Below are positions 19,521-49,988 of a stretch of 64,000 nucleotides of DNA, piece by piece. The position numbers were made by a program, and so were the translations under genes. How positions within the stretch are numbered: the stretch's first letter is position 1; every line of letters starts with the position of its first letter. Source of the stretch: Nanobdellota archaeon (GTDB lineage: Archaea; Nanobdellota; Nanobdellia; Pacearchaeales; GW2011-AR1); assembly GCA_038046005.1 (NCBI GenBank), contig JBBSXB010000001.1, positions 32,001-96,000 of the forward strand, in the 5' to 3' direction. The notes under the pieces were generated by a model, which worked only from the letters and a program-made list of their open reading frames with translations, did not search any database and was not told the DNA's origin.

Positions 19521-19913
19521 TTAAGATTTTATCTGCTTTGGAAAATTTGACAATATTTCTTCTATAGAATTTTTTATTCTAGAATCCTCAAAGTCTTTGT
19601 GAATTGTTACTCTAAGCCAATTTATTTGTGCTTTATTTAGATTAGGATAACTAGCACCATGAGAAAATCTATTAAAATTATCATAAGCTTCTAAAATTAC
19701 TTCATAATATTTTGACCTATAAAATTCCCAATAATAAGCACTATTTTTTTCTCCATACACCTGTTCCACAGAAATTAAATTTTTTGGAGAAATTTGTACA
19801 GGATCTTGAAGAAACACTTTATTTTTGAAAAGTAAATAGATATTTTTTAAAGCATCAGGGGGTCTATCATACCACAGAACATCATTCAAAGTAATCACAA
19901 TCGGTTTTTCCAT
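19521..19913 (-). CDS. Orphan hypothetical protein between ftsZ and secE
   Basis: 130-aa ORF with its own TATA-like box. Confidence 0.6.
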   Translation of the reverse strand: MEKPIVITLNDVLWYDRPPDALKNIYLLFKNKVFLQDPVQISPKNLISVEQVYGEKNSAYYWEFYRSKYYEVILEAYDNFNRFSHGASYPNLNKAQINWLRVTIHKDFEDSRIKNSIEEILSNFPKQIKS

Positions 19914-19956
19914 AATGCTAAATAATTATAACATTTAAAAGAATTATTGTGGTCGA

Positions 19957-21063
19957 CTATTCTTCTTCGCCTTCAAAGAATTCTATTCCCAATTCTTCCT
20001 CAATTTCTTTGTGCTTTCTTTTTTCAAGGCTGTCTGTTGTTCCGAAAATCTGAGAACTTTTAACTCCTGTGACAATCAACAAAACTCTTATTGATTTTTC
20101 CATATCTGGAGAAATTTGAGCACCCCATATTAATTTTGCATCTGGGCTCAACTTTTCACCTATCCCGCCAATTATCGTTTTGCATTCTTCAAGACTCATG
20201 TCCGGACCGCCTATAACATTAACCAAAGCGCCAGTTGCATTAGAGATGTCAACATCTAGCAAAGGGTTTTGAATCGCTTTTTCAACAGCTTCAATAGCCC
20301 TGTTCTGGCCATCTGATTCTCCCATGCCTATAAGTGAAACCCCCCCATCAACCATTACAGCTTTTATGTCTGCAAAATCTAAGTTAACTAATCCAGTTGT
20401 TGTGACTAATTCAGTAACTCCCTTAACAGCATTGGTCAAGATTTCATCAGCGATTTTGAAAGCAGTGTGTAATGGAAGTTCTGGTGCCAATTCAAGAAGC
20501 TTGTCGTTTGGAATGACTATCAAAGTATCAACAACACCTTCAAGTCTTTCCAGTCCGTTCATTGCATTTTCTATTCTTTTCTTTCCCTCTATTGTAAAAG
20601 GAATTGTCACAACTGCTATTGTTAAAGCGCCTTGTTTTTTTGCGATACTTGCTATAAATGGAGCTGCTCCTGTTCCTGTTCCTCCGCCAAGACCGCATGT
20701 TATGAAAATCATATCTGCTCCTGCAAGTTTTTTCTTGATTTCCGATTCTGATTCTTTTGCAGCTTCTTCTCCAATTTTTGGATTACTGCCCGCCCCAAGT
20801 CCTTGCGTTAACTCCCGGCCAATTAATATTTTTTGATCAGCGCTGGCATAAAGCAAATCTTGAGCATCTGTATTAATAGCTATTAATTCTCCTCCCTTAA
20901 TTCCAATTTCTTTCATTCTGCTTAGAGAATTATTTCCTCCACCTCCAACTCCCACAATTTTTGTTCTTGCTGTTTGCTTTTTTATAAGCTCTGCTAACTC
21001 TTTATCAATTTCCCTAAGTTCTGGAGAAAGATCCGAATCATCTCCTTTAACCATATAACCCAT
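19957..21063 (-). CDS. ftsZ: Cell division protein FtsZ
   Basis: GVGGGGNN, NTDAQDL, GLGGGTGTG, NLDFAD. Confidence 0.98.
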   Translation of the reverse strand: MGYMVKGDDSDLSPELREIDKELAELIKKQTARTKIVGVGGGGNNSLSRMKEIGIKGGELIAINTDAQDLLYASADQKILIGRELTQGLGAGSNPKIGEEAAKESESEIKKKLAGADMIFITCGLGGGTGTGAAPFIASIAKKQGALTIAVVTIPFTIEGKKRIENAMNGLERLEGVVDTLIVIPNDKLLELAPELPLHTAFKIADEILTNAVKGVTELVTTTGLVNLDFADIKAVMVDGGVSLIGMGESDGQNRAIEAVEKAIQNPLLDVDISNATGALVNVIGGPDMSLEECKTIIGGIGEKLSPDAKLIWGAQISPDMEKSIRVLLIVTGVKSSQIFGTTDSLEKRKHKEIEEELGIEFFEGEEE

Positions 21064-21094
21064 TCACACAAAAAGAAATCTCAATTTATAAGTA

Positions 21095-21775
21095 TTATTG
21101 TGCTGTTTCTTCAACCTTAATCTCTTTCACTTCCTTAACTGCCAAAAGCTTTACTTCTAAATCAAGGTCAAGTATTTCCCTGTATTTGTCTTTGAAAAGA
21201 ACAATGAATTTTTCCAGTTCTGGCTCAACTTCTAAAGTTATCTTTTTTCCGTAGATGTCATATTTTATTTCTCTTCTAAACAAGAAGTCATTGAAAGCTT
21301 TTATTTTTTCGTTTAAATCTGTGACTTTCCTTAAAACCTTTACGTTGTAAACAACATGTTTTCCCGCTAAAGGATTGTTAAAATCTACAATTACCCTCCC
21401 TCCTGAAGAAGTTATTACTTTTCCAACCCGATTATCAAAGTTAAAAACAGCTCCAGGCACAGGATTAAGATTTTGTTGGATGAATATTTTTAAAGGAATA
21501 ACTTGGACAAGTTTCGTGTCTCTAGGCCCAAAAGCATTTTCAGGGTCTAATGAGATTTCATACTTTCCAATGTCTTTTCCAATTAAAAAATCCTCAACTC
21601 CCTTGAAAAACATTCCATGGCCTAACGCAAAAATGAACGGCTTTGCTTCAATTGGATTGTCATGGCCGTGATGAAGCTTCTCAAGATCTTCTTTTATGTT
21701 GGAATCAAACACTCCTCCATCTCTTAATTTTCCCGTAAATTGCACTTCAATAAAGTCATTTTTTTGGAATGGCAT
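21095..21775 (-). CDS. slyD: FKBP-type peptidyl-prolyl isomerase (archaeal long type, SlyD-like)
   Basis: PENAFGPRD, VDFNNPLAGK. Confidence 0.9.
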   Translation of the reverse strand: MPFQKNDFIEVQFTGKLRDGGVFDSNIKEDLEKLHHGHDNPIEAKPFIFALGHGMFFKGVEDFLIGKDIGKYEISLDPENAFGPRDTKLVQVIPLKIFIQQNLNPVPGAVFNFDNRVGKVITSSGGRVIVDFNNPLAGKHVVYNVKVLRKVTDLNEKIKAFNDFLFRREIKYDIYGKKITLEVEPELEKFIVLFKDKYREILDLDLEVKLLAVKEVKEIKVEETAQ

Positions 21776-22212: not shown

Positions 22213-22213
22213 A

Positions 22214-22501
22214 ATGATAAATCTATTAGACTTATTGAGCAGAAGAGAGGGTGATGAAAGACGAATAGAAAGAGCTAAAAGTGAAGATGGAAGCTATAAT
22301 ATTGTTGAGAATTATTTGCAAGAGGGAAGGTTACTAGGAATTATTCCAGTAGTTGTTGAAATTGAAAGAACATATTTTCCAGCAGGAAGAGTTTTTGCAG
22401 CAATAAATCTTGGACATAAAGAAAAAGTTAAAATTAAAACTAATTTTTCAAAAGAGTATAGGAAACAATTAAATAAACTAAAAAGTGTAACTAATTATTA
22501 A
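22214..22501 (+). CDS. Orphan hypothetical protein between aIF5A and L40e
   Basis: 95-aa ORF tightly coupled on both sides. Confidence 0.6.
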   Translation: MINLLDLLSRREGDERRIERAKSEDGSYNIVENYLQEGRLLGIIPVVVEIERTYFPAGRVFAAINLGHKEKVKIKTNFSKEYRKQLNKLKSVTNY

Positions 22502-24806: not shown

Positions 24807-24887
24807 TCACAAATCAATAACTCCTTCTTCCGAAGTGTTTCACGGAGTAAACCTTCGCAGAAATTATAAGTCTATGACACCCTCTTT
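24807..24887 (-). repeat. Diverged duplicate of the gene 3' end flanking a 27-nt palindrome
   Basis: KEGVIDL* (24864-24887) and EEGVIDL* (24807-24830) separated by hairpin CGAAGTGTTTCACGGAGTAAACCTTCG (24831-24857). Confidence 0.75.
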
Positions 24888-25214
24888 TGTCAATGCAGCA
24901 AATCTAATTCCAACTGGAAAATTTATCAGCGCAGAAATCAAAGCCATGTGCTCTTTTCCTTCTCCAGAAGCTAAACTCAAAGCTACTTCCATGCCGCTAA
25001 TTTTTCCCTTGAGTTTTTCTGAAAATTCATCTCTAAGCTCTTTTATTTTTTTGCTAAAATCTACCTTAATAAATTCAAATGGTTTTTCATGCTTGAATTC
25101 TTTTGCAAAGTCATCTCCAAAAATAATTATCTTATCCCATTCTCCATACTTCATTAAACCAGAAACCTGCGCCCAGGTTCCCTTCCCAGTTGATAATAAA
25201 GCTACGAGTTCCAT
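24864..25214 (-). CDS. Hypothetical protein (Rossmann-like alpha/beta)
   Basis: 116-aa ORF MELVALLSTGKGTW...SGEGKEHMAL. Confidence 0.75.
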   Translation of the reverse strand: MELVALLSTGKGTWAQVSGLMKYGEWDKIIIFGDDFAKEFKHEKPFEFIKVDFSKKIKELRDEFSEKLKGKISGMEVALSLASGEGKEHMALISALINFPVGIRFAALTKEGVIDL

Positions 25215-25565: not shown

Positions 25566-26195
25566 ATGGAACTTGAAGAAGAACTAAAGAAAGCTCTGAT
25601 AGAGCTAAGGAAAGGAAAAGAAAGAAAGTTTGATCAAACAGTTGACTTAATTGTAAATTTGCAAAAATTCAACATAAAAAAAGATTCTGTAAATATTTTT
25701 GTTAACCTCCCCCACAAGATAAAAAATAAAAGAATAGCTGCTTTTTTAGAATCAAAGAATTCTGCCATAGACACAATAACACAAGATGAGTTCAAAGGTT
25801 ATAGTGATAAAAAATCTTTAAAAAAACTTGTGAAAAGATTTGATTTCTTTATTTCCCAAGCCAGTTTAATGCCAAAAGTAGCCACTGTTTTTGGAAAAGT
25901 TTTGGGACCTGCTGGAAAAATGCCTTCCCCCCAACTTGGAATAATTATGAATGTTGATCAAAAAGCCCTAGAGGAATTAAAGGAAAAAATAAACAAAAGC
26001 GTAAGAATAAAGACAAAAGAAGCAAGTATAAAAATTTCAATAGGAAAACAAAGCATGGAAGATGAAAAGATAATTGATAATATAGTTACAATTTATAATT
26101 CTCTGATAAAAGCTCTTCCTAAACAAAAAGAAAACATAAAAAATGTAGAAGTTAAATTCACGATGACTAAACCCCAGAAAATAAGAATAAAATGA
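25566..26195 (+). CDS. rpl1: 50S ribosomal protein L1
   Basis: RKFDQTVDLIVNL, GKVLGPAGKMP, KFTMTKP. Confidence 0.95.
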   Translation: MELEEELKKALIELRKGKERKFDQTVDLIVNLQKFNIKKDSVNIFVNLPHKIKNKRIAAFLESKNSAIDTITQDEFKGYSDKKSLKKLVKRFDFFISQASLMPKVATVFGKVLGPAGKMPSPQLGIIMNVDQKALEELKEKINKSVRIKTKEASIKISIGKQSMEDEKIIDNIVTIYNSLIKALPKQKENIKNVEVKFTMTKPQKIRIK

Positions 26196-27019
26196 AATCT
26201 AAAGAAACAAAAAGAAAAATTCCAAAGAAAAAAATTGCTGAAGTTGAAAGTTTGAAAAACCTTATAAAAAGCAAGAAAACAATATTGATTGCATCTATAA
26301 AAAATATTCCCGCCTCGCAATTTCAAGAGATATCCAAAAGCCTGAGAGGAAAAGCTGTGGTTAAAGTCCCAAAAAAAAATCTAATAATAAGAGCCATAGA
26401 TTCCTCTGACAAAAAAGAATTAGAAGAATTAAAAGAAAGCATAAAAGAAAATACTACAATACTATTTTCGGATCTTGATGCATTCGATCTCGCTGCTGAG
26501 CTGATAAAAAATAAGAGTTATGCTAAGGCTAAAGCCGGCCAAGAAGCGCCTGAAGACATAGAAGTCCAGGAAGGGCCGACAGAATTAATTCCCGGACCAG
26601 CTATAAGTGAACTTGGAGCTCTGGGAATACAAATCCAAATTGAAAAAGGAAAAATCCACATTAAACAATCAAAAATTATTGCAAAAAAGGGCGAGAAGAT
26701 TTCACAGCCAGCCGCTGAAGTAATGGCGAAGCTTGACATCAAACCATTTGTCATATCCTTAATCCCACTAGCTGCTTTTGATAATACCGAAAACAAAGTT
26801 TACAAAGAGATAAATATTGACCCAGAAGGAACTTTGAATGGATTGAGAAACGCTTTCACAAGATCTTTGGCATTTGCAGTAAGTATTGCATACACTTGCC
26901 AGGGCACAATAAAATTACTTATAGCAAAAGCAGGGAGAAATGAAAAGGCTATTGAAAATTTGATGGTAAAAACTGATGTTCCGCAAGTAAATTCCGAGGA
27001 GGAAATTAAAAATGAGTAA
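26192..27019 (+). CDS. rpl10: 50S ribosomal protein L10 (P0), lacking the C-terminal stalk tail
   Basis: AKAGQEAPEDIEV.EGPT..PGP.ISELGALGI. Confidence 0.95.
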   Translation: MKSKETKRKIPKKKIAEVESLKNLIKSKKTILIASIKNIPASQFQEISKSLRGKAVVKVPKKNLIIRAIDSSDKKELEELKESIKENTTILFSDLDAFDLAAELIKNKSYAKAKAGQEAPEDIEVQEGPTELIPGPAISELGALGIQIQIEKGKIHIKQSKIIAKKGEKISQPAAEVMAKLDIKPFVISLIPLAAFDNTENKVYKEINIDPEGTLNGLRNAFTRSLAFAVSIAYTCQGTIKLLIAKAGRNEKAIENLMVKTDVPQVNSEEEIKNE

Positions 27020-27363
27020 ACAAGCGCTAGGAACATTTCCAGGATTTGATGAAGAGTTAGAAAGACTTAGAACCTTAGGACACGAAGCAATAATCTTGGG
27101 AAACAGAGAAGAAGTTCGTAGGATACTTAACGAAGATGTATATAATTTTTTATTCCAACAAGATCAATATCAAAGACAGCTTTATAGAACATTTAAAAAC
27201 TTTGCCGAAGAGAATCCTGAACTAAAACCAATTGTAGGGGAATATTTATCAAAATTAGAACAAAGCATCAGAAATAGGGCAGAAGCATTAAATTCTTGGA
27301 GTAATGATGTTAGGGGAAATCTAAAACTCTTTGAAGATTCAATAAAAGTAAATTCCGAGGAGG
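26985..27363 (+). repeat. Perfect 18-bp direct repeat AAGTAAATTCCGAGGAGG flanking an orphan gene
   Basis: Copies at 26985-27002 and 27346-27363; each contains the SD GGAGG. Confidence 0.9.
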
Positions 27364-27371
27364 GAAAATAA
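27012..27371 (+). CDS. Orphan helical protein inserted between L10 and L12
   Basis: 119-aa ORF whose C-terminus VNSEE derives from the repeat. Confidence 0.7.
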   Translation: MSKQALGTFPGFDEELERLRTLGHEAIILGNREEVRRILNEDVYNFLFQQDQYQRQLYRTFKNFAEENPELKPIVGEYLSKLEQSIRNRAEALNSWSNDVRGNLKLFEDSIKVNSEEGK

Positions 27372-27661
27372 TGGAATATATATACGGAGCTTTATTGTTA
27401 CACAAACTTGGAAAAGAAGTTAGTGAACACAATTTGAAAAGTGTTATTGCGGCTACAGGAGCGCATACAGATGAGGGAAAAATAAAATCCCTTATTGCAA
27501 GTTTGAAGGGTGTTGACATAGATTTAGAATTAGCAAATGCTAGTTTAGTTTCGGCCGCACCTGCTCAAGGAAGTGCACCTGCACACGAAAAGCACGAAGA
27601 GAAAAAGCACGAAGAAAAGAAAGAAGCTGCTGCAGAAGGATTATCTGCTCTATTTGGTTAA
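27371..27661 (+). CDS. rpl12: 50S ribosomal protein L12 (P1)
   Basis: MEYIYGALLLH...AAEGLSALFG. Confidence 0.97.
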   Translation: MEYIYGALLLHKLGKEVSEHNLKSVIAATGAHTDEGKIKSLIASLKGVDIDLELANASLVSAAPAQGSAPAHEKHEEKKHEEKKEAAAEGLSALFG

Positions 27662-37167: not shown

Positions 37168-37168
37168 T

Positions 37169-37864: not shown

Positions 37865-37871
37865 AATTAAA

Positions 37872-38255: not shown

Positions 38256-38256
38256 A

Positions 38257-38649: not shown

Positions 38650-38651
38650 AC

Positions 38652-39227: not shown

Positions 39228-39280
39228 AATTCTTTTAGGATTTCATCAAATCCGTTCATCAACGGAGGTTAAAACATATA

Positions 39281-39949: not shown

Positions 39950-39950
39950 A

Positions 39951-40154: not shown

Positions 40155-40156
40155 CT

Positions 40157-40453: not shown

Positions 40454-40466
40454 AAATACGCGAAAA

Positions 40467-40859
40467 ATGACAAAGAAGGAAACCAAAGTAAAAGAAGAAG
40501 GAATGCTAAAAATAGCTGGTGCTTTATGCAGTGATAGGAACTGCCATGTCCATGGCGGATTAAAGACAAGAGGAAGAATCTTTGATGGATTGGTCATAAA
40601 AAAATTCCCGAAAAGAGTCGCAATAGAATTTGACAGGATGACATATGTAAAAAAATATGAAAGGTATAAAAAATCAAACACAAAGATTCATGCCAGGCTT
40701 CCTGACTGCATGAGTGACAAAATCAATGTTGGAGACTACATTAGGGTGCAGGAATGCAGACCTTTAAGTAAGATAATACACTTCGCGGTTTTAAACAAAA
40801 TCAAAAATAAAGAAGAAGCAACAAAGATTTTGAACAAACAGGAGACTAACTTAAAATGA
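40467..40859 (+). CDS. rps17: 30S ribosomal protein S17
   Basis: CSDRNCHVHG, KYERY, ECRPLSK. Confidence 0.97.
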   Translation: MTKKETKVKEEGMLKIAGALCSDRNCHVHGGLKTRGRIFDGLVIKKFPKRVAIEFDRMTYVKKYERYKKSNTKIHARLPDCMSDKINVGDYIRVQECRPLSKIIHFAVLNKIKNKEEATKILNKQETNLK

Positions 40860-41200
40860 AAAGAGCAATTATTTTAACAGGAAGAGAAGGAAACTCTGAG
40901 TTTTACAGTTTATTATTAGAACTAAATTCTAATGCTGTTTTTTACACTCATCGGTTTAAAGAAGGAAATCATCAAGCTTTTTTAGACGAAGTTGCTTCAG
41001 ATTTTGCAGAAAAAATTGCTGAATATAATAAATCTGGAATTTTAGAAGTAGGAAGATTAAATGGTTATAATATAATAGATGGAAAACCTATTGAGGTAGA
41101 TAAAATAGACACAACTTCGTTTGAAAGAAGATTAGAAAAATTGTTAAAAAATTTAAAGGGAGTAACTGCAGTAGAAAATATTGCAAGTTTAAACAACTAA
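40856..41200 (+). CDS. Orphan protein inserted between S17 and L14
   Basis: 114 aa; ATGA overlap upstream and TAAAATG downstream. Confidence 0.65.
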   Translation: MKRAIILTGREGNSEFYSLLLELNSNAVFYTHRFKEGNHQAFLDEVASDFAEKIAEYNKSGILEVGRLNGYNIIDGKPIEVDKIDTTSFERRLEKLLKNLKGVTAVENIASLNN

Positions 41201-41201
41201 A

Positions 41202-41603
41202 ATGAAAGCAATAAGTGCACGAGGAACAGAAGGAATGAATTTAGGAGCCTATGCCGTGGCTGCTGATAATAGCGGTGCTAAAATTGTAAAAATCGTCGGT
41301 GTTAAAGGAAGCAAGGCAAAAAAAGGAAAACAAACAGCTGCAAAAATAGCAGATTGGGTTAAGGTCAGCGTAAGAAAAGGTTTGCCAGATATGAGGGGAA
41401 AAGTATTTGATGCTGTTGTTGTAAGACAAAAAAAACCATATAGAAGGCTTAGCGGGGAAAGAATTGCTTTCGAAGATAATGCAGTCGCTATACTAAAAGA
41501 TGAAAAAGGAAATCCAAAAGGGACACAAATTAAAGGTCCAGTAGCAAGGGAGGTTATGGAGAGATGGCAGCAAGTTGCTAAAATCGCTTCACTAGTCTAT
41601 TAA
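41202..41603 (+). CDS. rpl14: 50S ribosomal protein L14
   Basis: ADNSGAK, FEDNA, KGTQIKGPVARE. Confidence 0.97.
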   Translation: MKAISARGTEGMNLGAYAVAADNSGAKIVKIVGVKGSKAKKGKQTAAKIADWVKVSVRKGLPDMRGKVFDAVVVRQKKPYRRLSGERIAFEDNAVAILKDEKGNPKGTQIKGPVAREVMERWQQVAKIASLVY

Positions 41604-41604
41604 A

Positions 41605-42030
41605 ATGAAAAATAAATTTTATAAAAATTGGAAAGCATCAAAGAATCCAAAAAAGCAGAGAAAATATTCAGCTAATGCTCCAATCCATTTAATAAAAAAA
41701 ATGATAAGTGTAAATCTTTCAAAGGAATTAAGGAAAAAGTATGGAAAAAGAAATGTTCCAATTAGAAAAGGCGATACTGTAAGAATCATGGTAGGGAAAT
41801 TAAGAAATAAAGAAGGGAAAGTAAGCAAGGTAAAGAGAAATGACTTGAAGGTTTATATTGAAGGTGTGCAGGTAAAAAAAAGAGATGGGTCTAAAGCAGA
41901 TATTCCCACCAGGCCTTCAAATTTAAAAATAATTGAGTTGATTTTGGATGATAAAAAAAGAATAAAGTCTATTGAAAGAAAAGCAAACATTCACAAAGAA
42001 GAAAGTAAAAACAATAAGGAGAAAAAATAA
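41605..42030 (+). CDS. rpl24: 50S ribosomal protein L24
   Basis: PKKQRK, LSKELRKKYG, IRKGDTV. Confidence 0.97.
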   Translation: MKNKFYKNWKASKNPKKQRKYSANAPIHLIKKMISVNLSKELRKKYGKRNVPIRKGDTVRIMVGKLRNKEGKVSKVKRNDLKVYIEGVQVKKRDGSKADIPTRPSNLKIIELILDDKKRIKSIERKANIHKEESKNNKEKK

Positions 42031-42031
42031 A

Positions 42032-42679
42032 ATGCATTTGAAAAGACATAAGTCGCCAAAAAAATGGCCAATAAAGAGAAAGGGAACAAAGTATATAGTT
42101 AAACCAAACTTTAGCACTAACCAAGGGGTTCCAGTATTAATTGCATTAAGAGACATGTTAGAGCTTGCAAAAAACAGAAAAGAAGTAAAAAAAGCTATTC
42201 GTGAAAAACAGGTTTTGCTCAATGATAGAAAAATAAAAGACGAAAAAAATAATGTCTTACTCTTTGATGTTATATCAATAGTTCCGACAAACAAAAATTA
42301 TAAGTTGCAATTATCAAATTTCGGAAAGTTTATGTTTGAAGAAGTTAAAGACGCAAAGTGGCAGCAAAAAATAGTCAAAGTAGTAGATAAAAAAATCCTT
42401 AATGGTAAAAAAGTGCAGATTAATTTAAACGATGGCCATAATTTCTTATATAATGGCCAATTAAATATTAATGATTCTGTTGTTTTCGGCTTCAAAGAAA
42501 AAAAGATAATAAAAGTCCTTCAATTAAAAGAGAAAGCAAAAGCTATTGTTTACGCTGGAAAACACGCAGGTAAAGAAGGAGTTATTGAATCACTAGACAA
42601 TAATAAAAAAATGATTGAATTAGATGTGGGTGGCAGCAAAATTAATGTTTTAATTAAACAGATTATGGTGGTAGAATAA
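42032..42679 (+). CDS. rps4e: 30S ribosomal protein S4e
   Basis: MHLKRHKSPKKWPIKRKG; start adjusted to 42032. Confidence 0.95.
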   Translation: MHLKRHKSPKKWPIKRKGTKYIVKPNFSTNQGVPVLIALRDMLELAKNRKEVKKAIREKQVLLNDRKIKDEKNNVLLFDVISIVPTNKNYKLQLSNFGKFMFEEVKDAKWQQKIVKVVDKKILNGKKVQINLNDGHNFLYNGQLNINDSVVFGFKEKKIIKVLQLKEKAKAIVYAGKHAGKEGVIESLDNNKKMIELDVGGSKINVLIKQIMVVE

Positions 42680-42680
42680 A

Positions 42681-43190
42681 ATGACTAATAAAAAAGAAAA
42701 TATTATGAGAGAAATAAAAATAGAAAAAGTTGTCTTTAATGTCGGAGGAATGGGAGAAACCTTAGAAAAGGGTTTTAGGTTATTAAAATTCCTAACAGAA
42801 AAAAATCCTGCCAGGATGAAATCAAATAAAAGAATTCCAACTTGGGATATAAGGCCTAATTTGGCTGTTGGGGCAGTAGTAACTGTAAGAAAAGACTTGG
42901 ATAAAATTTTGAAAAGAATGCTTACTACAATTGATAACACCTTAAAAAGAAAGCAGATTAGCGAGAATAATTTTTCTTTTGGAATAAAAGAATATATCGA
43001 AATTCCAGGAGTGGAATATCAAAGAGATATTGGGATTATGGGATTGGACGTCACTGTTGTTTTTAAAAGAGCTGGTAGAAGAGTTGGGATAAAAAAAATC
43101 AAAAAAGGAAAAATTCCGAAAAAACAAACCATATCTAAAGAGGAAATAATTAAATTTATGGAAGAAAAATTCCAGACACAATTTATTTAA
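42681..43190 (+). CDS. rpl5: 50S ribosomal protein L5
   Basis: NIMREIKIEKVV, FSFGIKEYI, GIMGLDV. Confidence 0.97.
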   Translation: MTNKKENIMREIKIEKVVFNVGGMGETLEKGFRLLKFLTEKNPARMKSNKRIPTWDIRPNLAVGAVVTVRKDLDKILKRMLTTIDNTLKRKQISENNFSFGIKEYIEIPGVEYQRDIGIMGLDVTVVFKRAGRRVGIKKIKKGKIPKKQTISKEEIIKFMEEKFQTQFI

Positions 43191-43243
43191 AATGAAGTTA
43201 AATACAAAATTTTTAATCAAAGTAAATAAGGAGATAAATTTAA

Positions 43244-43474
43244 ATGACAGCAAGTGATTGGAAAAAAATACTCAAACAATTAAAAAATAAGCCAGCAGTA
43301 ATGGAGAAATTTATTAAGCACTGCAAACCTAAAGAAAGAAAAACGGGTATAGCTTCAAGAAAGTGTGAGAGATGTGGAAGGTTTGGAGCACATATAGGTT
43401 CTTACGGTTTGAATTTGTGCAGACATTGCTTCAGAGAAATTGCTCAAGAAATAGGCTTTACAAAATATTCATAG
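43244..43474 (+). CDS. rps14: 30S ribosomal protein S14 with N-terminal extension
   Basis: CERCG...YGLNLCRHCFRE. Confidence 0.95.
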   Translation: MTASDWKKILKQLKNKPAVMEKFIKHCKPKERKTGIASRKCERCGRFGAHIGSYGLNLCRHCFREIAQEIGFTKYS

Positions 43475-43481
43475 GAGAAAA

Positions 43482-43862
43482 ATGAGTCACGATATTGTTG
43501 CAGATGCACTAAACATGATAAATAATTCCCATAAGGCGGGAAAAGAAAATGTAAAGGTAAAGATAATTTCAAATCTTTTAATCGAAGTTCTAAAGATAAT
43601 GAAGAAGAAAGGAGCTATAAAGAAATACAAAATCGAAAGTAAAGAAAAGTCTCTAGAAGTTTCTATAGGTGATTTAACAGAATGCAAAGCAGTAAAACCA
43701 AGATTTACCGTTAACAGAGATCAATTAGAAAAATACAGAAGAAGATACCTCCCATCAAGAGATATGGGGACATTAATAGTCTCAACTAATAAAGGCCTTA
43801 TGACGCACGAAGAGGCTGAAGAAGAGAAAATAGGAGGTTGCATAATAGCATTCTTTTATTAA
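43482..43862 (+). CDS. rps8: 30S ribosomal protein S8
   Basis: STNKGLMTHEEA...GG. Confidence 0.97.
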   Translation: MSHDIVADALNMINNSHKAGKENVKVKIISNLLIEVLKIMKKKGAIKKYKIESKEKSLEVSIGDLTECKAVKPRFTVNRDQLEKYRRRYLPSRDMGTLIVSTNKGLMTHEEAEEEKIGGCIIAFFY

Positions 43863-43863
43863 A

Positions 43864-44406
43864 ATGAAAAAAGAAATATTCAAAGAAATGGTTATTCCTG
43901 AGGGAGTTAATGCAAAGGTAGATGGAAATGTACTAAATATCAGTGGTAAAAATGGAGAGATTACAAGAAAAATGAATTTAAATAAATTAGAGTTCAAAAT
44001 TTTTGATGGAAAAATTATTATTGGAAGAAAAAAGGCAACAAAAAACGAGAAGAAAATAATTAATACAATGGCAGCACATATAAAAAATATGATTGATGGA
44101 GTGCAGAAAAAATTTGAGTATCAATTGAAAATATGCTTTAGTCACTTTCCATTCACTGTAGAAACAAAAGGTAATGAAGTGTTAATAAAGAACTTTCTTG
44201 GAGAAAAAGTCCCTAGAAAAGTAAATATGCTAAAAGATGTTGAAATAAAAATAGACAAACAGAATATTACAATAAAGTCTGCAGATAAGGAATTAGCGGG
44301 ACAAGCAGCAGCTAACCTTGAAGAGGTTACAAAGGTTAAAAACAGAGACAGAAGAGTGTTTCAAGATGGCATTTATATAACAAGCAAAGCTGGGAGAGAA
44401 ATATAA
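43864..44406 (+). CDS. rpl6: 50S ribosomal protein L6
   Basis: SHFP, NFLGEK, DRRVFQDGIYI. Confidence 0.97.
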   Translation: MKKEIFKEMVIPEGVNAKVDGNVLNISGKNGEITRKMNLNKLEFKIFDGKIIIGRKKATKNEKKIINTMAAHIKNMIDGVQKKFEYQLKICFSHFPFTVETKGNEVLIKNFLGEKVPRKVNMLKDVEIKIDKQNITIKSADKELAGQAAANLEEVTKVKNRDRRVFQDGIYITSKAGREI

Positions 44407-44780
44407 TGACAAAATTTTTAAGAAGAAATTCTGATAAGTTTTCAAAGCTAGGATTAAGGAAAAAGAAAAAGCAAGTGTGGAGAAGCCCTAAGGGAAGACA
44501 TAACAAAATGAGGAAAAAAAGGAAAGGGTATCCTGCAGTTGTTAGTATTGGCTACGCAACAAATAGAAAAACAAGAGGAAAGATTGATAACAAAAATCAA
44601 ATTGAGGTTAATAATATCAAAGAATTGGCCGGATTAAAAAATAATGATATTGTCTTGATTGGAAAAATTGGAAAAAGGAAAAAGATAGAAATAGTAAAAA
44701 AGCTTAAAGAAATGAAAATTTCTGTTTCCAACCTCAATATAAACAAATTCCTAAAGAAGAATATGGGGGAGAAAAAATGA
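44406..44780 (+). CDS. rpl32e: 50S ribosomal protein L32e
   Basis: WRSPKGRHNKMR, SIGY. Confidence 0.93.
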   Translation: MTKFLRRNSDKFSKLGLRKKKKQVWRSPKGRHNKMRKKRKGYPAVVSIGYATNRKTRGKIDNKNQIEVNNIKELAGLKNNDIVLIGKIGKRKKIEIVKKLKEMKISVSNLNINKFLKKNMGEKK

Positions 44781-45181
44781 ACTTAAAAAAGAAAAAAGCA
44801 TTGGCTGCAAAAACTCTTGGAGTTGGAAAGGGAAGAATCGTTTTCTTAGTGCCAAGATTAGATGAAATAAAGGAAGCAATAACAAAACAAGATATGAGAG
44901 ATCTTCATAAAGAGGGAGCAATACTAATAAAAACAATAAAAGGAAGAAAAACAAAAAAGAAAAGCGGAAGAAGAGGTTATGGGAAAGTGAAAATAATTGT
45001 TAACACAAGGAAAAAAGATTATATTGTACTAACTAGAAAATTCAGAGGAATGGTTAAAGATCTCTTGAATAAAGGAATAATTTCAAAAGAAAACTCTTTA
45101 GAATTGAGGAAAAAAATAAAGAATAAGCAGTTTAAAAGTAAATCGCATTTTAATGAACAATTAAAAGTAAAGGAGTATTAA
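44777..45181 (+). CDS. rpl19e: 50S ribosomal protein L19e
   Basis: LAAKTLGVGKGRI, AITKQD. Confidence 0.93.
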   Translation: MNLKKKKALAAKTLGVGKGRIVFLVPRLDEIKEAITKQDMRDLHKEGAILIKTIKGRKTKKKSGRRGYGKVKIIVNTRKKDYIVLTRKFRGMVKDLLNKGIISKENSLELRKKIKNKQFKSKSHFNEQLKVKEY

Positions 45182-45655
45182 ATGGAAAAAGAAAAAGCAC
45201 TAAAAGATTTTGAAGAAGGGTTCGGCAGATTAAAGCAAGAACTTAAGTTTAAAACTAATTTGGATGAAATTGATGAAATTTTCTTTATTAGAGATGTTAT
45301 ACTTCAAGATGGATTTGTAAGCAAAAATTTATTCAGGCAAATGGCCTACAGGATTGCAGAATTTTATCTAAGATGGAATGATTATTTGCATGGTTTAATA
45401 ATGCCAAACCCTCAAAATATTTTAAGTTTAAGCGAAAGTAAGATTTTTAACCAAGAAGAGAAAAAGATTATAACAAACATGATAAAAAAGATAATGGAAT
45501 TGAACAGCAAGAATATTCTTATAACTTTGACTAGGGATAAAGCAGAAGAAGGGAAGTTTATTGATTACAGTGTTAATATGTGGAAAAGTGAATTACAACC
45601 AGAGATAATAAAATTAATTAAAAAAATAAATAAAGAATGGGGAGAAAACAAATGA
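45182..45655 (+). CDS. Hypothetical helical protein between L19e and L18
   Basis: 157 aa, coupled on both sides. Confidence 0.7.
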   Translation: MEKEKALKDFEEGFGRLKQELKFKTNLDEIDEIFFIRDVILQDGFVSKNLFRQMAYRIAEFYLRWNDYLHGLIMPNPQNILSLSESKIFNQEEKKIITNMIKKIMELNSKNILITLTRDKAEEGKFIDYSVNMWKSELQPEIIKLIKKINKEWGENK

Positions 45656-46137
45656 GAATCCAGAAGAAAAGAAGAAAAGAATTCAAAACAAACTATTTGA
45701 AAAGACTAGAAATGCTCAAAAGCGGAATACCAAGAGTTGTCTTTAGAAAAACAAACAGATATTTGATTTCACAATATGTTGAAAGTAAAGAAGCACAAGA
45801 CAAAATAATATTTGGAATTGATTCAAGAAAAATTTTAAATTACGGCTGGCCAAAAAATCTAGAAGGAAGTTTAAAGGGCGTTACTGCTGCTTATTTTTTA
45901 GGATTATTGACTGGAAAAAAGATTATCAAAGACAAACTTAAAACACCAATAATTGATTTTGGGCTTTATAGAGTATTACCTAAGACCAAACTGCATTCTT
46001 TTGTTAAGGGAATGATTGATGCTGGAGTTAAGATTAAAGACAAAAAAGAAAATTTTCCGGAGGAAGATAGGGAAAAGGGGAAACATATAACAAGTCTTAA
46101 ATTTGAAGAGATTAAATCAAAAATAGAAAAATCGTAA
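45652..46137 (+). CDS. rpl18: 50S ribosomal protein L18
   Basis: RRKEFKTNYLKRL, RVVFRKTN, AAYFLG; ATG 45652. Confidence 0.95.
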   Translation: MRIQKKRRKEFKTNYLKRLEMLKSGIPRVVFRKTNRYLISQYVESKEAQDKIIFGIDSRKILNYGWPKNLEGSLKGVTAAYFLGLLTGKKIIKDKLKTPIIDFGLYRVLPKTKLHSFVKGMIDAGVKIKDKKENFPEEDREKGKHITSLKFEEIKSKIEKS

Positions 46138-46138
46138 G

Positions 46139-46987
46139 ATGAAAAAAACAGATAAAAAACAAGTATTTGAAGATGTAAAGAAAACTGTAGAGGCCTATGG
46201 GGCATTTTCAGAAGAAGAAGCAATCAAGAGTGCAAAAAATCCAGAGGAGATTACTGTAAAGTTGATTGATGAAGACATCAAGGATAAAAAAGTTGAAGAG
46301 ATAATTGAAGAGACAGAAAAAAAGGTTATTGGAGAAAAGATTAGAGAAGAAATTGCTGGATGGAGACCAAAGACAAAGCTTGGAAGAGAAACAAGAGAGG
46401 GAAAAATAAAAAATATAGACGAAATATTAGAAAATAATAGAAAAATATTGGAAGAAGAAATTGTTGATTATCTGCTTGGTTTAAAGTCCGACTTAATTTC
46501 TATTGGACAATCAAAGGGAAAGTTTGGTGGAGGAAAAAGAAGGGCTTGGAGACAAACACAAAGAAAGACCGAAGAAGGTAATGTGCCAACTTTTTCCACA
46601 ATGGCTGTTGTTGGAGACGAAAATGGGCATGTTGGAGTTGGAATGGGGGAAGCAAAAGAAACTCTTCCTGCAAGAGACAAAGCAATAAGAAAGGCTAAGC
46701 TTAACATCATGAAAGTCGGGAGAGGGTGCTCGGCATTTGACTGTAATTGCAACGAACTCCACACTATTCCATTTAAAGTTGAGGGAAAAACTGGAAGTGT
46801 GAGAATTATTTTAATTCCGGCTCCACAGGGCACTGGTTTAGTTGTGGGAAAAGAAATAAAGAAGGTTTTAAAATTAGCTGGAATTAAAGACGTTTATAGC
46901 AAAACTTTTGGACAAAAAAGAACCTCATTCAATCTTGTCAAAGCGTGTGTTAATGCTCTTGAAAAAACAATGGTGAAGAAAAAATGA
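46139..46987 (+). CDS. rps5: 30S ribosomal protein S5 with acidic N-terminal extension
   Basis: WRPKTKLG, VVGDENGHVG, PAPQGTGL. Confidence 0.97.
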   Translation: MKKTDKKQVFEDVKKTVEAYGAFSEEEAIKSAKNPEEITVKLIDEDIKDKKVEEIIEETEKKVIGEKIREEIAGWRPKTKLGRETREGKIKNIDEILENNRKILEEEIVDYLLGLKSDLISIGQSKGKFGGGKRRAWRQTQRKTEEGNVPTFSTMAVVGDENGHVGVGMGEAKETLPARDKAIRKAKLNIMKVGRGCSAFDCNCNELHTIPFKVEGKTGSVRIILIPAPQGTGLVVGKEIKKVLKLAGIKDVYSKTFGQKRTSFNLVKACVNALEKTMVKKK

Positions 46988-47040
46988 AAGCAAATCAAAG
47001 ATTTTCATTCATTCGAAATTATAGGAGATTATTCAAATGA
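46984..47040 (+). other. 18-codon bridging mini-ORF with internal hairpin
   Basis: MKANQRFSFIRNYRRLFK*; ATGA overlaps with both the S5 stop and the L30 start. Confidence 0.45.
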
Positions 47041-47459
47041 TTGTAGCAATAAGAATCAAAGGAGATGTAAACATAGACCCTAGAATAAAGGAAACACTTT
47101 ACAGAATCAGGCTTAGAAGAAAATATTCTTGTGTGGTCATTAAACCAGATCCCGTTAGCCTAGGGGTCATAAAAAAACTAACAAGTTTTATTGCATATGG
47201 AGAGATAAATGAAGAAACTTTGCACAATTTAATTGAAAAGCGAGGAAAACCGATTGACAAAAAAAAGAAAATAGATGTAAAAAAAGTTGTTGAAGAAATT
47301 AAAAAAGGGAAAAAATTTGAAGATTTAAACTTGAAACCATTTTTCAGGCTTCATCCTCCAAGAGGAGGAATAGACAGTGGAAAACACTTTGGAGTCAAAA
47401 AAGGAGTTTTGGGAAATAACAGAGAACATATTAATAAATTAATAGAGAGAATGTTGTAA
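47037..47459 (+). CDS. rpl30: 50S ribosomal protein L30
   Basis: IAYGEI, FRLHPPRGG. Confidence 0.97.
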   Translation: MIVAIRIKGDVNIDPRIKETLYRIRLRRKYSCVVIKPDPVSLGVIKKLTSFIAYGEINEETLHNLIEKRGKPIDKKKKIDVKKVVEEIKKGKKFEDLNLKPFFRLHPPRGGIDSGKHFGVKKGVLGNNREHINKLIERML

Positions 47460-47460
47460 T

Positions 47461-47925
47461 ATGAAAACAAAAAAACGTAAAAAGTCGTCAAGAATGCACG
47501 GCAGAGGAATGGGCAGCAATGGAAGAGGATTTAGAAAGAAAGGAAAGGGTAAGGGTCATCGAGGAGGAAAAGGGATGGCTGGAACAGGAAAAAGAGCTGA
47601 CCAAAAAAAAACTCTCGTACAAAAGCTTTATGGTCACGAATATTTCGGAAAACAAGGAATAACGAGCAGAGGAACAAGAAGAGATAAAAGAAAGAAAATA
47701 AATTTGAGGGACATATCAAATAACCTGAATAAATATGGGAAGAAAAGCGGAGATAAATGGGAGATAAATTTAAGCGAATACAAAATACTTGGTGAAGGGG
47801 AAGTCACTCACAAACTTGTAATCAAGGCAAAAGAAGCTTCACAATCTGCAATTGAAAAAGTTGAAAATGCTGGCGGTTCTATAATCCTTTCCGGAAAAAA
47901 AGAAAAGATTGAAAAAGAAGGGTGA
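47461..47925 (+). CDS. rpl15: 50S ribosomal protein L15
   Basis: GHRGGKGMAG, YFGKQG, KILGEG, AIEKVENAGG. Confidence 0.97.
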   Translation: MKTKKRKKSSRMHGRGMGSNGRGFRKKGKGKGHRGGKGMAGTGKRADQKKTLVQKLYGHEYFGKQGITSRGTRRDKRKKINLRDISNNLNKYGKKSGDKWEINLSEYKILGEGEVTHKLVIKAKEASQSAIEKVENAGGSIILSGKKEKIEKEG

Positions 47926-47943
47926 ATTTAAGAGTGGATTAAA

Positions 47944-49377
47944 ATGAACTTTAAGCAGATATTTAATTACATACCTGAGGTGAAAAAACCTGAGGAAAAA
48001 AAGCTCAGCTTTAATGTGAAGCTTAAGTGGACTCTTATTATTCTTGCAGCTTTTTTCGTTTTGGCAAATATTTCTCTTTTTGGATTAAGCCAAAATTCAC
48101 TTTCCAGGTTTGAATATCTTGCAATAATTCTTGGAACAGATTTTGGAAGCATAATATCGTTAGGAATAGGTCCGATAGTTATGGCTTCGATTATTTTGCA
48201 ATTATTAGCTGGGTCGGGAATTTTGAATATTGACCAGACTACAGAAGAAGGGAAAAAATTTTTCCAAGGAATACAAACACTTATGGTGTTTTTCTTCATA
48301 ATATTCGAGGCATTAATATACGTAATAATGCAAGGTCTTCAGGCGGCGCCAGGACTGACGGAAGTCGTTATATTTCAACTGATTCTTGGAGGATTAGCTA
48401 TATTCTATATGGATCAGGTGACCACAAAATGGGGATTTGGAAGCGGAGTTAGTTTGTTTATTGCTGCAGGAGTCTCATGGAGGCTTATGACTGGAGGATT
48501 TCAGTTCATAAATCAGCAAGGAAGAAATTGTCTTTTAGATTTCAACAACACTCCTTGTGCGGGAAAAGTTCTTGTTTTACTCCAATCAATTGTAAATAGA
48601 GCCCCTATTGAGTTGACATCTGCTTTATCTGCAATACTTGCTACTATAGCAATAACATTGCTTGTTGTCTGGGCTCAATCTCTTAAAGTTGAAATTCCAC
48701 TCTCGTTTGGCAGAATAAGAGGATATACTGTAAAATGGCCTCTTGCATTCTTTTACGCATCAAATATTCCAGTAATTCTTACAGCTGCCTTGGTTGCAAA
48801 TATGCAGCTCTTTGGGGGGTTAATTGAAAACGCTGCTACAAGCTGTGCTCAAGGAACTTGTTCTGCGTTAGCAGGTTTTGCGTCACATTTAACATTTTTA
48901 GGAACTTTCATTAATGGACAACCGGTGTCAGGATTAGCATTTTGGGTCGGCTCAAATAATATTTTAGACTTAATAATCAGAGGCGGACTTTTACCTAGAT
49001 ACTTGCTTCAAGGACTTACACATATAGTGTTTTTTATGGGTTTATCAATGATATTCTCTGTTTTTTGGGTTAAAACATCTGGGATGGACGCAAAGGCCCA
49101 AGCACATAAAATTTCTGCTTCAGGATTACAAGTTTCTGGTTTCAGACAGGATGAAAGAATTCTTGAATCTATATTGTCTAGGTATATAATGCCTTTAACT
49201 GTGATGGGGGGAGCTGCTGTCGGACTCTTAGCTGCAACAACAGATTTGCTTGGGGCTTTAGTTTCAGGAACAGCAATATTATTAGTCGTAATGATAATGT
49301 TCCAGTTCTATCAGAGCATTGCGCAGCAACATCAGACAGACATGAATCCTGCAATAAGAAAATTCATGGGTAGCTAA
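47944..49377 (+). CDS. secY: Protein translocase SecY
   Basis: LGIGPIVMASI, WGFGSGVSLFI, YASNIPVIL, GTAILL. Confidence 0.98.
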   Translation: MNFKQIFNYIPEVKKPEEKKLSFNVKLKWTLIILAAFFVLANISLFGLSQNSLSRFEYLAIILGTDFGSIISLGIGPIVMASIILQLLAGSGILNIDQTTEEGKKFFQGIQTLMVFFFIIFEALIYVIMQGLQAAPGLTEVVIFQLILGGLAIFYMDQVTTKWGFGSGVSLFIAAGVSWRLMTGGFQFINQQGRNCLLDFNNTPCAGKVLVLLQSIVNRAPIELTSALSAILATIAITLLVVWAQSLKVEIPLSFGRIRGYTVKWPLAFFYASNIPVILTAALVANMQLFGGLIENAATSCAQGTCSALAGFASHLTFLGTFINGQPVSGLAFWVGSNNILDLIIRGGLLPRYLLQGLTHIVFFMGLSMIFSVFWVKTSGMDAKAQAHKISASGLQVSGFRQDERILESILSRYIMPLTVMGGAAVGLLAATTDLLGALVSGTAILLVVMIMFQFYQSIAQQHQTDMNPAIRKFMGS

Positions 49378-49451
49378 GCTTTAAAAAAGAGATTCTCTTA
49401 ACACTAAAATGAACAAAATAAAAAAGGGAGTAAATTCCTTTTCTAAATAAA

Positions 49452-49988
49452 ATGAATAAAGAAGGAAGTTTCAAACCTGTAGTCATAGTATTGGTGATTT
49501 CTATGCTCATCGCTTTTTTTTGGAATAGTTTGACTTTTCTTAAAGATGGAGTGCATGCAGTCTTAAACCCCACTCTTGGTGCTTTGATAAATTGGAATGT
49601 TAACATTGGAATGTCAATTGTAGTTTTGTTGATAACTGTTGTCACAACTGTGGTTCAAAAGTATACAACAGATCAAGAAGCCTTAAAAGATTTGAAAAAG
49701 CAGCAAAAAGAAATGAATGAAAAGGCCAAACAGCACAGAAGCGACCCGCAAAAAATGCTCGAGATACAGAAAGAAATGGCTCCTTTAAGCATAAAGATGA
49801 TGAAGCTTAGCATGAGGGCATTTGTATTTACCGCAATTCCTTTGCTTTTGTTCATCAGATGGTTTGTGGACTTCTTCACAAGCATAGGAAATCCAAAGAT
49901 ATTCGGATTTTTCAGCTGGCTTTGGTTTTACATATTGTTCAGCCTTATTGTAAGTGCAATCCTTAGAAAGATTATGAAAATTGTCTAA
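49452..49988 (+). CDS. DUF106 / EMC3-TMCO1 (Oxa1 superfamily) membrane protein
   Basis: TM - coiled coil - TM topology, SWLWFYIL; typical position after secY. Confidence 0.85.
   Translation: MNKEGSFKPVVIVLVISMLIAFFWNSLTFLKDGVHAVLNPTLGALINWNVNIGMSIVVLLITVVTTVVQKYTTDQEALKDLKKQQKEMNEKAKQHRSDPQKMLEIQKEMAPLSIKMMKLSMRAFVFTAIPLLLFIRWFVDFFTSIGNPKIFGFFSWLWFYILFSLIVSAILRKIMKIV

Follow-up and report, generated by a model that had tools for sequence, protein, structure and literature searches.

Single-gene gain and loss at operon junctions and a repeated mini-cistron in the ribosomal-protein operons of a Nanobdellota archaeon

A stretch of 64,000 nucleotides (nt) from a Nanobdellota archaeon (GenBank assembly GCA_038046005.1, contig JBBSXB010000001.1, positions 32,001 to 96,000 of the forward strand; the whole stretch is referred to as the window, and its first letter is position 1) contains ribosomal-protein operons that are interrupted, exactly at the junctions between genes, by additional open reading frames (ORFs) and by short inserts. 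An earlier interpretation, made from the letters alone (the sequence-only reading), had ascribed this to a junction-targeted gene-cassette system. What that reading observed is real, and it reaches further than was supposed. The explanation we favour, with a probability of about 0.6, is that two things are superimposed: (i) single genes being gained and lost at junctions without dedicated machinery, and (ii) a nearly neutral, family-wide short repeat, named here the mini-cistron.

The genome carrying the window (G000) consists of 874,611 bases on 15 contigs, is 98% complete and has a G+C content of ~33%. It was compared with a genome of the same genus (G001; 88% complete and smaller, with 641,674 of its 650,300 bases entering the comparison) and with further relatives, from which the ribosomal-protein operon (37 relatives) and the L10 cluster (20 relatives) were sampled. 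The resulting table of operon junctions covers 38 genomes and 24 junctions, and 21 genomes of the family were placed in a tree. A Pfam scan of 52 ORFs of the region identified positions 35121–49988 as an archaeal ribosomal-protein operon (with the order L3-L4-L23-L2-S19-L22-S3-L29-SUI1-S17-L14-L24-S4e-L5-S14-S8-L6-L32e-L19e-L18-S5-L30-L15-SecY-EMC3-like) and located an L1-L10-L12 cluster at 25566–27661, with genes for FtsZ, FKBP, aIF5A and an M50 protease upstream. Six ORFs of 95–157 amino acids (aa) are present at tight junctions of these core operons, as the sequence-only reading had described:

19521–19913, minus strand: orfA, 130 aa, present in G000 only, between the ftsZ stop codon and the secE promoter spacer.
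22214–22501, plus strand: orfB, 95 aa, G000 only, between the genes for aIF5A and a small zinc-ribbon protein (probable L40e).
27012–27371, plus strand: orfC, 119 aa, G000 only, between L10 and L12.
37872–38255, plus strand: orfD, 127 aa, G000 only, between L2 and S19.
40856–41200, plus strand: orfE, 114 aa, G000 only, between S17 and L14.
45182–45655, plus strand: orfF, 157 aa, between L19e and L18, a helical protein of a widespread unnamed family.

The identities of the flanking genes are supported by Pfam and, for secE, by NCBIfam; the L40e call is weak (16.8 bits against an NCBIfam cut-off of 54). The gaps between orfB–orfF and their neighbours range from −19 to +7 nt, i.e. they are coupling-type junctions, and the earlier remark that translational coupling is usually kept holds for them. 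orfA brings its own TATA-like upstream sequence. Frames of 95–157 sense codons exceed chance expectation at a G+C content of ~33%, and the ORFs are probably translated.

The evidence for turnover begins with G001, from which orfA–orfE are absent at precise empty sites. In that genome L2 and S19 are separated by 1 nt, L10 runs straight into L12, a 23-nt spacer stands in place of orfB between aIF5A and the zinc-ribbon gene, ftsZ is followed directly by the secE promoter spacer, and a 49-nt mini-cistron (described below) is found between S17 and L14, where G000 has orfE. With the exception of orfF, the ORFs are not vertically fixed, and alignment of the operon across relatives revealed unrelated ORFs at other junctions of the same operon; on both points the expectation of the sequence-only reading was borne out. 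The empty sites, together with the different ORFs of the relatives, indicate that the process of gain and loss is real.

Among the 21 family genomes placed in the tree (38 operon loci), 42 gaps of at least 150 nt were counted, excluding those that hold merely L29 or the ORF family of the SUI1–S17 junction, and nearly all gaps contain an ORF on the same strand. In the concatenated ribosomal-protein tree, they are patchily distributed between sister genomes: 9 in G009 versus 2 in G013, 3 in G010 versus none in G019, 3 in G011 versus none in G007, and 3 versus 1 in another pair. An all-against-all phmmer comparison of 79 junction ORFs yielded only four families, namely orfF (three genomes), an exonuclease of the L4–L23 junction (four genomes), L29 and the SUI1–S17 ORF, and no relation was detected by phmmer between ORFs that occupy the same junction in different genera (best E 0.13). 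Of 26 junction ORFs taken from relatives, 19 lacked a Pfam family, four were exonucleases, one was a NUDIX protein and two gave sub-threshold matches only. Since these ORFs are patchy and mutually unrelated, parsimony favours repeated, lineage-specific gains. The L4–L23 exonuclease is a DEDDh (RNase T-like) protein of ~210–245 aa, and the four genomes that carry it (G003, G009, G013 and G021) do not form one clade:

L005:3050–3787, L008:14117–14788, L009:12058–12711 and L014:13926–14555: loci of the L4–L23 exonuclease.

The phenomenon extends over the whole genome. Between G000 and G001 there are 559 reciprocal best hits (median identity 87%) and 513 conserved adjacencies, and the spacing of 226 of the latter differs by at least 30 nt. 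Clean same-strand inserts, for which the spacing in the other genome is at most 60 nt, number 49 in G000 only versus 7 in G001 only. The genome-wide rate for G000 is 49 of 369 conserved same-strand junctions (~13%) versus 2 of 24 in the main ribosomal operon; the proposal that insertion is aimed at the most highly expressed operons was not upheld, the rate there being no higher than elsewhere. Of 263 ORFs of G000 lying between conserved neighbours, 250 have no match in G001, and only 24 of these have a paralogue; the G+C content of the inserted ORFs is 0.320 versus 0.343 for core ORFs. The inserts are scattered singly over all contigs and, among the 37 that consist of a single gene, 28 are co-oriented with the operon and 9 are opposed. 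They mirror the junction that they entered, with ATGA on both sides at ATGA sites and spacers of ~40 nt on both sides at promoter-type sites, for which either selection or duplication of the junction could be responsible. Some inserted genes encode ordinary enzymes, e.g. two FkbM-type methyltransferases. These paralogues (50017–50787, minus strand, and 52432–53211, plus strand) occur in G000 but not in G001 and lie on either side of conserved genes immediately beyond the operon's downstream end; the corresponding neighbours in G001 are 36 and 23 nt apart.

The inserts are not generally bordered by repeats. A perfect 18-nt direct repeat, which the sequence-only reading had noticed at the L10–L12 junction, was confirmed, and the empty site of G001 holds a single copy of it:

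26985–27002, plus strand: left copy of the 18-nt repeat, AAGTAAATTCCGAGGAGG, covering the end of L10 and the Shine-Dalgarno sequence.
27346–27363, plus strand: right copy, now serving as the 3' end of orfC and as the L12 ribosome-binding site.

That flanks are duplicated as a rule found no support in a genome-wide test of direct repeats, which did not rise above shuffled junctions. For 56 clean inserts (the L10–L12 case is outside this set because L12 of G001 lies at a contig edge), the longest boundary match averaged 6.88 nt versus 6.55 nt in shuffled junction pairs, matches of at least 10 nt occurred at 4 of the 56 inserts versus 1.1 expected, and in-register tests of starts and stops gave p values of 0.17 and 0.08. 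An 11-nt junction repeat, AAATTAAAATG, is common to the start regions of orfD and S19; this match (L2–S19) and one of 10 nt at S17–L14 are at the level of generic TAAAATGAAA-type junctions. The outliers are the 18-nt repeat at L10–L12 and a perfect 15-nt repeat on contig C14.

None of the six ORFs matched a Pfam family at E ≤ 0.01 or reached an NCBIfam cut-off, and PADLOC and PHROGs yielded sub-threshold rows only. orfC and orfD each match only themselves among 5.8 billion proteins, and orfD was found in one of 41 genomes, i.e. in G000 alone. Apart from the 18-nt repeat and chance matches of 15–18 nt, blastn and tblastx showed no resemblance between orfA–orfE and other DNA of G000 or G001. Three proposals about the origin or nature of the orphans were rejected: (i) phage or defence provenance (PHROGs gave nothing at E < 0.004, and no PADLOC family rose above noise), (ii) local birth of orfA–orfE by duplication or overprinting (only the chance matches just mentioned were returned) and (iii) a common C-terminal motif (the regular expression matched none of the 250 inserted ORFs and one of the 559 core ORFs). 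For orfE, the ESM Atlas model has a predicted local distance difference test (pLDDT) score of 0.52, and its weak CARF/HFX_2341_N-like lead (score 0.83) is below the level of trust. Both orfE (40856–41200, plus strand) and an ORF at 24864–25214 (minus strand) encode small unassigned proteins that open with a Rossmann-like strand and a glycine-rich loop.

orfF differs from the other five, and the description of it as an orphan has to be withdrawn: it belongs to a widespread, conserved family and is under purifying selection. It is found at the same junction in G001 (87% identical) and G003 (50%), its ratio of nonsynonymous to synonymous substitution rates (dN/dS) is 0.039 (0.026–0.058 for its neighbours), and a search of 1.84 billion cluster representatives returned 285 family members of ~155–170 aa at E ≤ 0.001. 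With a single query it was detected in 13 of 41 relatives. Outside the operon, the homologue loci (L133–L141) were scanned for context in seven cases, an eighth locus being left out; the homologue adjoins pheT in five of the seven and follows a gene for a class I aminoacyl-tRNA synthetase in one. The predicted structure is a confident all-helical bundle (pLDDT 97.3), for which Foldseek gave no hit at E ≤ 0.001 and a profile search of the PDB nothing below E 0.27, and the best VIA-align Z of 8.1 is within helical-bundle noise. orfF is a candidate translation-linked protein. The identity of L18, S5 and L30 between the G000 and G003 lineages is slightly raised; co-transfer of orfF with its flanks between these lineages was rejected, as the tree of L19e, L18, S5 and L30 keeps G003 in its own clade.

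The second component, the mini-cistron, is a unit of 55–70 nt made up of a stop/start overlap, a short ORF, a Shine-Dalgarno sequence and another stop/start overlap. Its ATG overlaps the upstream TGA or stands one base after a TAA (TAAAATG), the ORF has 17–25 codons, GGAG(G) is located 7–9 nt before the next gene, and the TGA overlaps the ATG of that gene. The mini-ORFs of the window had been taken for deletion scars; the inserts at S5–L30 and L5–S14 turned out to be copies of this repeated element, and the end of S17 may contain the remains of another:

46984–47040, plus strand: S5–L30 mini-cistron, with an 18-codon ORF (MKANQRFSFIRNYRRLFK), GGAG, and ATGA at both ends.
43186–43252, plus strand: degenerate copy at L5–S14 (the insert, 43191–43243, has 53 nt).
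40818–40859, plus strand: 3' tail of S17 (130 aa versus 121 aa in G001), GCAA..CAAAGATTTT..CAGGAGA..AAATGA.

The same mini-cistron sequence is found at S5–L30 in G000 and at S17–L14 and L5–S14 in G001. At S5–L30, G001 has a plain ATGA overlap and G000 has 53 nt more, with AAATGA on either side; in 30 other genomes this gap is at most 53 nt. The L5–S14 copy of G000, the ORF of which no longer ends on the S14 start, is 63% identical to the intact copy of G001. In an alignment the S17 tail of G000 resembles a decayed mini-cistron fused in frame, behind which orfE would have been inserted.

A sequence model built from 14 mini-cistron copies (R1) gave its best match with the S5–L30 element (E 1.2e-15; the insert there, 46988–47036, has 49 nt) and matched the L5–S14 copy with E 4.4e-8. 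It had matches in 31 of the family's 61 genera, at 1–8 per genome and five in G000. In 16 of 30 examined loci the element lies between two ribosomal-protein genes (L3–L4 twice, L4–L23, L22–S3 twice, S17–L14 three times, L5–S14 twice, S8–L6 twice, S5–L30 twice, L1–L10 and S13–S4), and such junctions account for 16 of the 20 strongest matches and none of the 10 weakest. Other copies follow the genes for SecD/F, RpoB or an aminoacyl-tRNA synthetase, precede apgM (phosphoglycerate mutase) or reside in a pilin-like operon. Operon loci carrying the element were found in 7 of 23 genomes of the family versus one of the 15 genomes that represent the order's other families. Copies at different junctions of one genome are 96–97% identical (55 of 57 positions in G001, 59 of 61 in G014), and same-junction copies of other genomes are 41–72% identical. 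Adjacent copies occur in two places (contig C31 of G055 and, with a spacing of 100 nt, contig C4 of G059), and two copies contain in-frame expansions of 18 and 24 nt.

The core motif of the mini-cistron is confined to its copies, other matches being at chance level. In a variant with a 4-nt indel the core CAAAGATTTTCAwTCATTy is kept in another frame, and the ORF is still open to the TGA/ATG overlap. It follows that what is constrained seems to be an open, translated spacer with a nucleotide core rather than a peptide, and peptide conservation as the main constraint was rejected on the basis of this variant. As regards RNA structure, RNAalifold predicted no pairs and the single-sequence fold had a z of −0.77; an ATGAAA/TTTCAT hairpin can be drawn, and it offers no covariation to test. 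An Rfam search between positions 19000 and 50500 found two tRNAs only at E ≤ 1. The alignment has no terminal inverted repeat of the kind expected of a miniature inverted-repeat transposable element, and no match to Y1_Tnp, TnpB-type or DDE_Tnp_1 families was obtained in G000, other transposase families not having been searched.

The sequence-only reading had listed further short inserts with hairpins or mini-ORFs. All five inserts (46–74 nt) are present, and of their proposed structures only that at L22–S3 folds better than shuffled sequences (z −2.36, with 4 of 200 shuffles as good); the z values of the other four range from −0.77 to +1.24. Besides the two mini-cistrons, they are:

24818–24863: spacer of 46 nt, unremarkable.
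39228–39280, plus strand: L22–S3 insert of 53 nt with two hairpins and GGAGG, where G001 has a 4-nt gap.
49378–49451, plus strand: spacer of 74 nt between SecY and EMC3-like (DUF106), with a 13-codon mini-ORF.

The L22–S3 insert cannot be assigned clearly to the mini-cistron family (its look-alikes are weak, with E 0.012 and 0.045). A G000-only sequence at C4:37421–37473 resembles it (~50 nt, with a G+C-rich hairpin followed by GGAGG and a start codon), and such G+C-rich hairpin inserts may represent a second small repeat class or a recurrent way of exposing a ribosome-binding site. The spacer before DUF106 is orthologous in G001, where it carries a 12-nt in-frame insertion; it is a conserved spacer and not the scar that it had been taken for, and its 13-codon mini-ORF is possibly a real small protein or leader.

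These observations can be assembled into the following account. The lineage (Nanoarchaeota) would gain and lose single accessory genes at gene boundaries across its compact genome, mostly orphans and some ordinary enzymes, the ribosomal-protein operons not being exempt and no site-specific cassette machinery being involved. Rare recombination, illegitimate or guided by short homology, would be the most likely route of entry for new DNA, template switching being the other, and selection would retain only those inserts that lie exactly between genes, point in the direction of the operon and have a working stop/start junction restored. The conserved flanking genes may later move inserts between relatives by homologous recombination. 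The mini-cistron, with its overlaps and Shine-Dalgarno sequence, would hand ribosomes on, so that its insertion is nearly neutral; it would be copied between junctions sharing AAATGA(AA) and accumulate in ribosomal-protein operons. Direct observation covers the filled and empty sites with their exact boundaries, the scale across the genome, the absence of flanking repeats as a rule, and the repeat family with its surroundings; the mechanism of insertion is conjectural, as is translation of the ORFs.

Several points weigh against it. The 49:7 asymmetry could come partly from deletions in G001, given that this genome is smaller and 88% complete. Event direction was polarised by outgroups for the ribosomal operons and L10–L12 only, and for most events elsewhere it is presumed. 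Gene calling in G000 and G001 was crude (ORFs of at least 50 aa, greedy selection), some 'genes' being false and the counts approximate. Synonymous sites between the two genomes are saturated (synonymous divergence of 0.8–1.7), and hence the turnover need not be fast in absolute time. Neither transcripts nor peptides were seen, and no RNA run is listed as containing the stretch. No polymorphism within the population was seen in assembled contigs, to which this comparison was limited, and the G000-type contig is uninterrupted in metagenome run X1. The 18-nt and 15-nt duplications exceed the usual microhomology and hint at a specific process in some events. As to the mini-cistron, its mobility is represented by one clean filled/empty pair (S5–L30, G000 versus G001), the high identity of same-genome copies could be due to gene conversion and not fresh copying, and the strong bias towards ribosomal-protein junctions could mean function and not neutrality.

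The last point leads to an alternative that we judge improbable, though by no means negligible, namely that the mini-cistron has a function in translation. As a naturally occurring 'bicistronic design', it would bring in ribosomes, provide a Shine-Dalgarno sequence that is not bound by coding constraints, and be recruited to tune the output of particular ribosomal-protein genes. The 16 of 30 copies at ribosomal-protein junctions would be explained in this way, as would the strict architecture (every intact copy has GGAG(G) 7–9 nt before the ATG and an ORF ending on it) and the conservation of the core in two reading frames; moreover, a 2025 review of translational coupling states that short ORFs may serve solely to deliver ribosomes (PMC12548453). 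However, the occupied junctions vary between genera and even within a genus, copies decay (the L5–S14 copy of G000 being down to 63% identity with its orthologue), half of the genera have no match, no consensus RNA structure was found, and some copies are located outside ribosomal operons (in the pilin-like operon and upstream of the phosphoglycerate mutase gene).

A bolder proposal makes the two components one. Copy-and-paste of junctions by template switching at AAATGA(AA) would seed mini-cistrons in the most heavily translated operons, where these spacers would nurse new proteins, larger ORFs being captured alike. Mini-cistrons would grow by in-frame expansion (18 and 24 nt) and fuse to neighbours (as in the S17 tail), and the 18-nt duplication at L10–L12 would be the footprint of an ORF captured by the same process. 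If true, genes would be born and captured within ribosomal-protein operons, the order of which would then not be frozen; we consider this proposal doubtful.

Equally doubtful is the supposition that the junction ORFs are old and vertically inherited, and were lost many times or diverged so far that same-junction ORFs would in fact be orthologues. The presence of orfF and of the L4–L23 exonuclease at the same junction in non-sister genomes would fit it, as would the recurrence of certain junctions (L5–S14 in five genomes; L14–L24, L30–L15, L2–S19 and S17–L14 in four each), and flanking repeats would permit clean deletions. Against this, the junctions of orfC, orfD and orfE are direct, or hold unrelated ORFs, in ~19–37 other genomes, so that one would have to assume numerous losses in parallel and an ancestral operon with dozens of additional genes. 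Furthermore, orfF evolves like its neighbours (see the dN/dS and the 87% identity given above), i.e. junction genes need not be ultra-fast, and the same-junction ORFs remain unrelated by phmmer.

It is very unlikely that orfA–orfE are not genes at all, being chance or decaying frames in inserted non-coding DNA: their lack of homologues or of a family and the poor model of orfE (pLDDT 0.52) would agree with this, but frames of 95–130 codons fill the whole insert and have coupling-type starts and stops at a G+C content (~33%) at which stop codons are frequent, 28 of 37 inserts are co-oriented, and the shared case, orfF, is under strong purifying selection.

There remains the integron-like system that the sequence-only reading had proposed. 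In integrons, an IntI-type tyrosine recombinase, an attI site and a promoter stand beside a contiguous array of cassettes, and the 3' end of each cassette carries attC, an imperfect inverted repeat of tens of bases. The region (52 ORFs scanned) has no integrase or transposase domain, as the sequence-only reading had correctly noted. In the rest of G000, two genes with a Phage_integrase domain (tyrosine recombinases) are located on contigs C4 and C11, away from all inserts, and no match to Y1, TnpB-type or DDE_Tnp_1 transposases was found in this genome, other transposase families not having been searched. The gaps downstream of orfB–orfF are only −19 to +3 nt, and those downstream of inserts genome-wide have a median of 16.5 nt (13 of 28 being at most 10 nt), which leaves no room for attC-type sites; nor do the insert ends have a motif in common beyond generic junction sequence. 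Site-specific placement of promoterless cassettes by a recombinase at a recognised junction site can thus be given hardly any credence: single-gene inserts lying exactly at junctions (28 of 37 co-oriented), the 18-nt duplication flanking one insert and the two tyrosine recombinases speak for it, but there are no attC-like ends, nearby recombinase, arrays or shared cassette boundaries, and the boundary repeats do not exceed those of shuffled junctions (6.88 versus 6.55 nt; p 0.17 and 0.08).

Outside the window, at C4:44900–48100 of G000 (L143:4443–7644), reverse-transcriptase ORFs adjoin three 132-nt repeats (69–100% identical), of which one is intergenic and two are near the 3' ends of adjacent genes, with a tyrosine recombinase gene ~3 kb away. 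The arrangement resembles a diversity-generating retroelement that has two target genes, and no link between it and the inserts was found.

The stretch is present in groundwater metagenome runs, the contigs of which were compared with positions 35001–50000. In runs X5 and X6, contigs diverging by 10–14% from G000 show G001-type junctions: orfD is missing (391 nt skipped), the S5–L30 site is empty and the L22–S3 gap is short. As G001-like and G000-type contigs occur in the same groundwater samples, two congeners share this habitat. The joints in X5 and X6 at which orfD, the S5–L30 element and some of L22–S3 are bypassed were considered as variants of G000 and rejected, since they belong to the divergent G001-like contigs. 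Some ribosomal proteins encoded in the window have long stretches beyond their Pfam domains, namely S5 (46139–46987, 282 aa, with the first domain match beginning at residue 138), L22 (38652–39227, 191 aa) and L4 (36065–36895, 276 aa); these extensions, specific to the lineage, may likewise have arisen from the dynamics at the junctions.

Among known systems, integron cassettes resemble the inserts in being promoterless single genes that share one orientation and depend for expression on a promoter upstream of them; they differ in that the inserts have no attC, attI, adjacent integrase or array, and that the junction sequences vary by site. Phage morons are comparable with orfA, which lies with its own promoter-like sequence between two unrelated genes, yet orfA has no phage context and no PHROG matches. 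Closest to the gain of orphans is the finding of Price, Arkin and Alm 2006 (PMC1480536) that new operon pairs often come about when an ORFan is inserted beside a native gene. As described there, these are lineage-specific genes without homologues, placed beside native genes, usually under the native promoter and probably functional; insertions within pre-existing operons were much rarer than additions at the ends, and canonical spacing, less frequent in new pairs, arose later. The present inserts differ from them in being located inside ribosomal operons, in having canonical spacing (−4 to +7 nt) and in affecting about one conserved junction in eight.

The closest known analogue of the mini-cistron is the mycobacterial interspersed repetitive unit (MIRU). 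According to a 2025 review of translational coupling (PMC12548453, section 11, which summarises Supply et al. 1997), MIRUs are short repeats dispersed between the genes of operons, with a small co-directed ORF coupled to the downstream gene by an overlap of −4 nt (ATGA); they are apparently mobile, inserting at start codons with minimal effect on expression, and short ribosome-delivering ORFs of this kind have been exploited in biotechnology. The mini-cistron differs in occurring in an archaeon (Nanoarchaeota/DPANN), mostly as single units and not as variable tandem arrays, at low copy number (1–8 per genome) and with a strong bias towards ribosomal-protein junctions. The likeness is one of functional class, common descent being neither expected nor claimed. 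In synthetic bicistronic designs, a short leader cistron holds the Shine-Dalgarno sequence for the gene that follows, and its stop codon overlaps the start of that gene. The mini-cistron shares both features; it differs in being natural, repeated and located in archaeal operons, with a putative function. A full-text literature search found no account of inserts like these in the ribosomal operons of archaea, DPANN lineages included, and the mini-cistron would be the first archaeal counterpart of MIRUs found by searching of this kind.

Few gene orders in cellular life are as conserved as that of the ribosomal-protein genes, and in these archaea it is repeatedly interrupted, at junctions that vary between genera, by genes that include ones without relatives anywhere. 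Pipelines for marker genes that assume contiguous blocks of ribosomal-protein genes will meet extra ORFs in these lineages and should be used with caution. The mini-cistron is a natural example of the leader-cistron design of synthetic biology, and the system as a whole offers a natural case in which to study the uptake of genes by compact genomes rich in operons while translational coupling stays intact. It also helps to locate the origin of the large 'dark' gene fraction in DPANN archaea.

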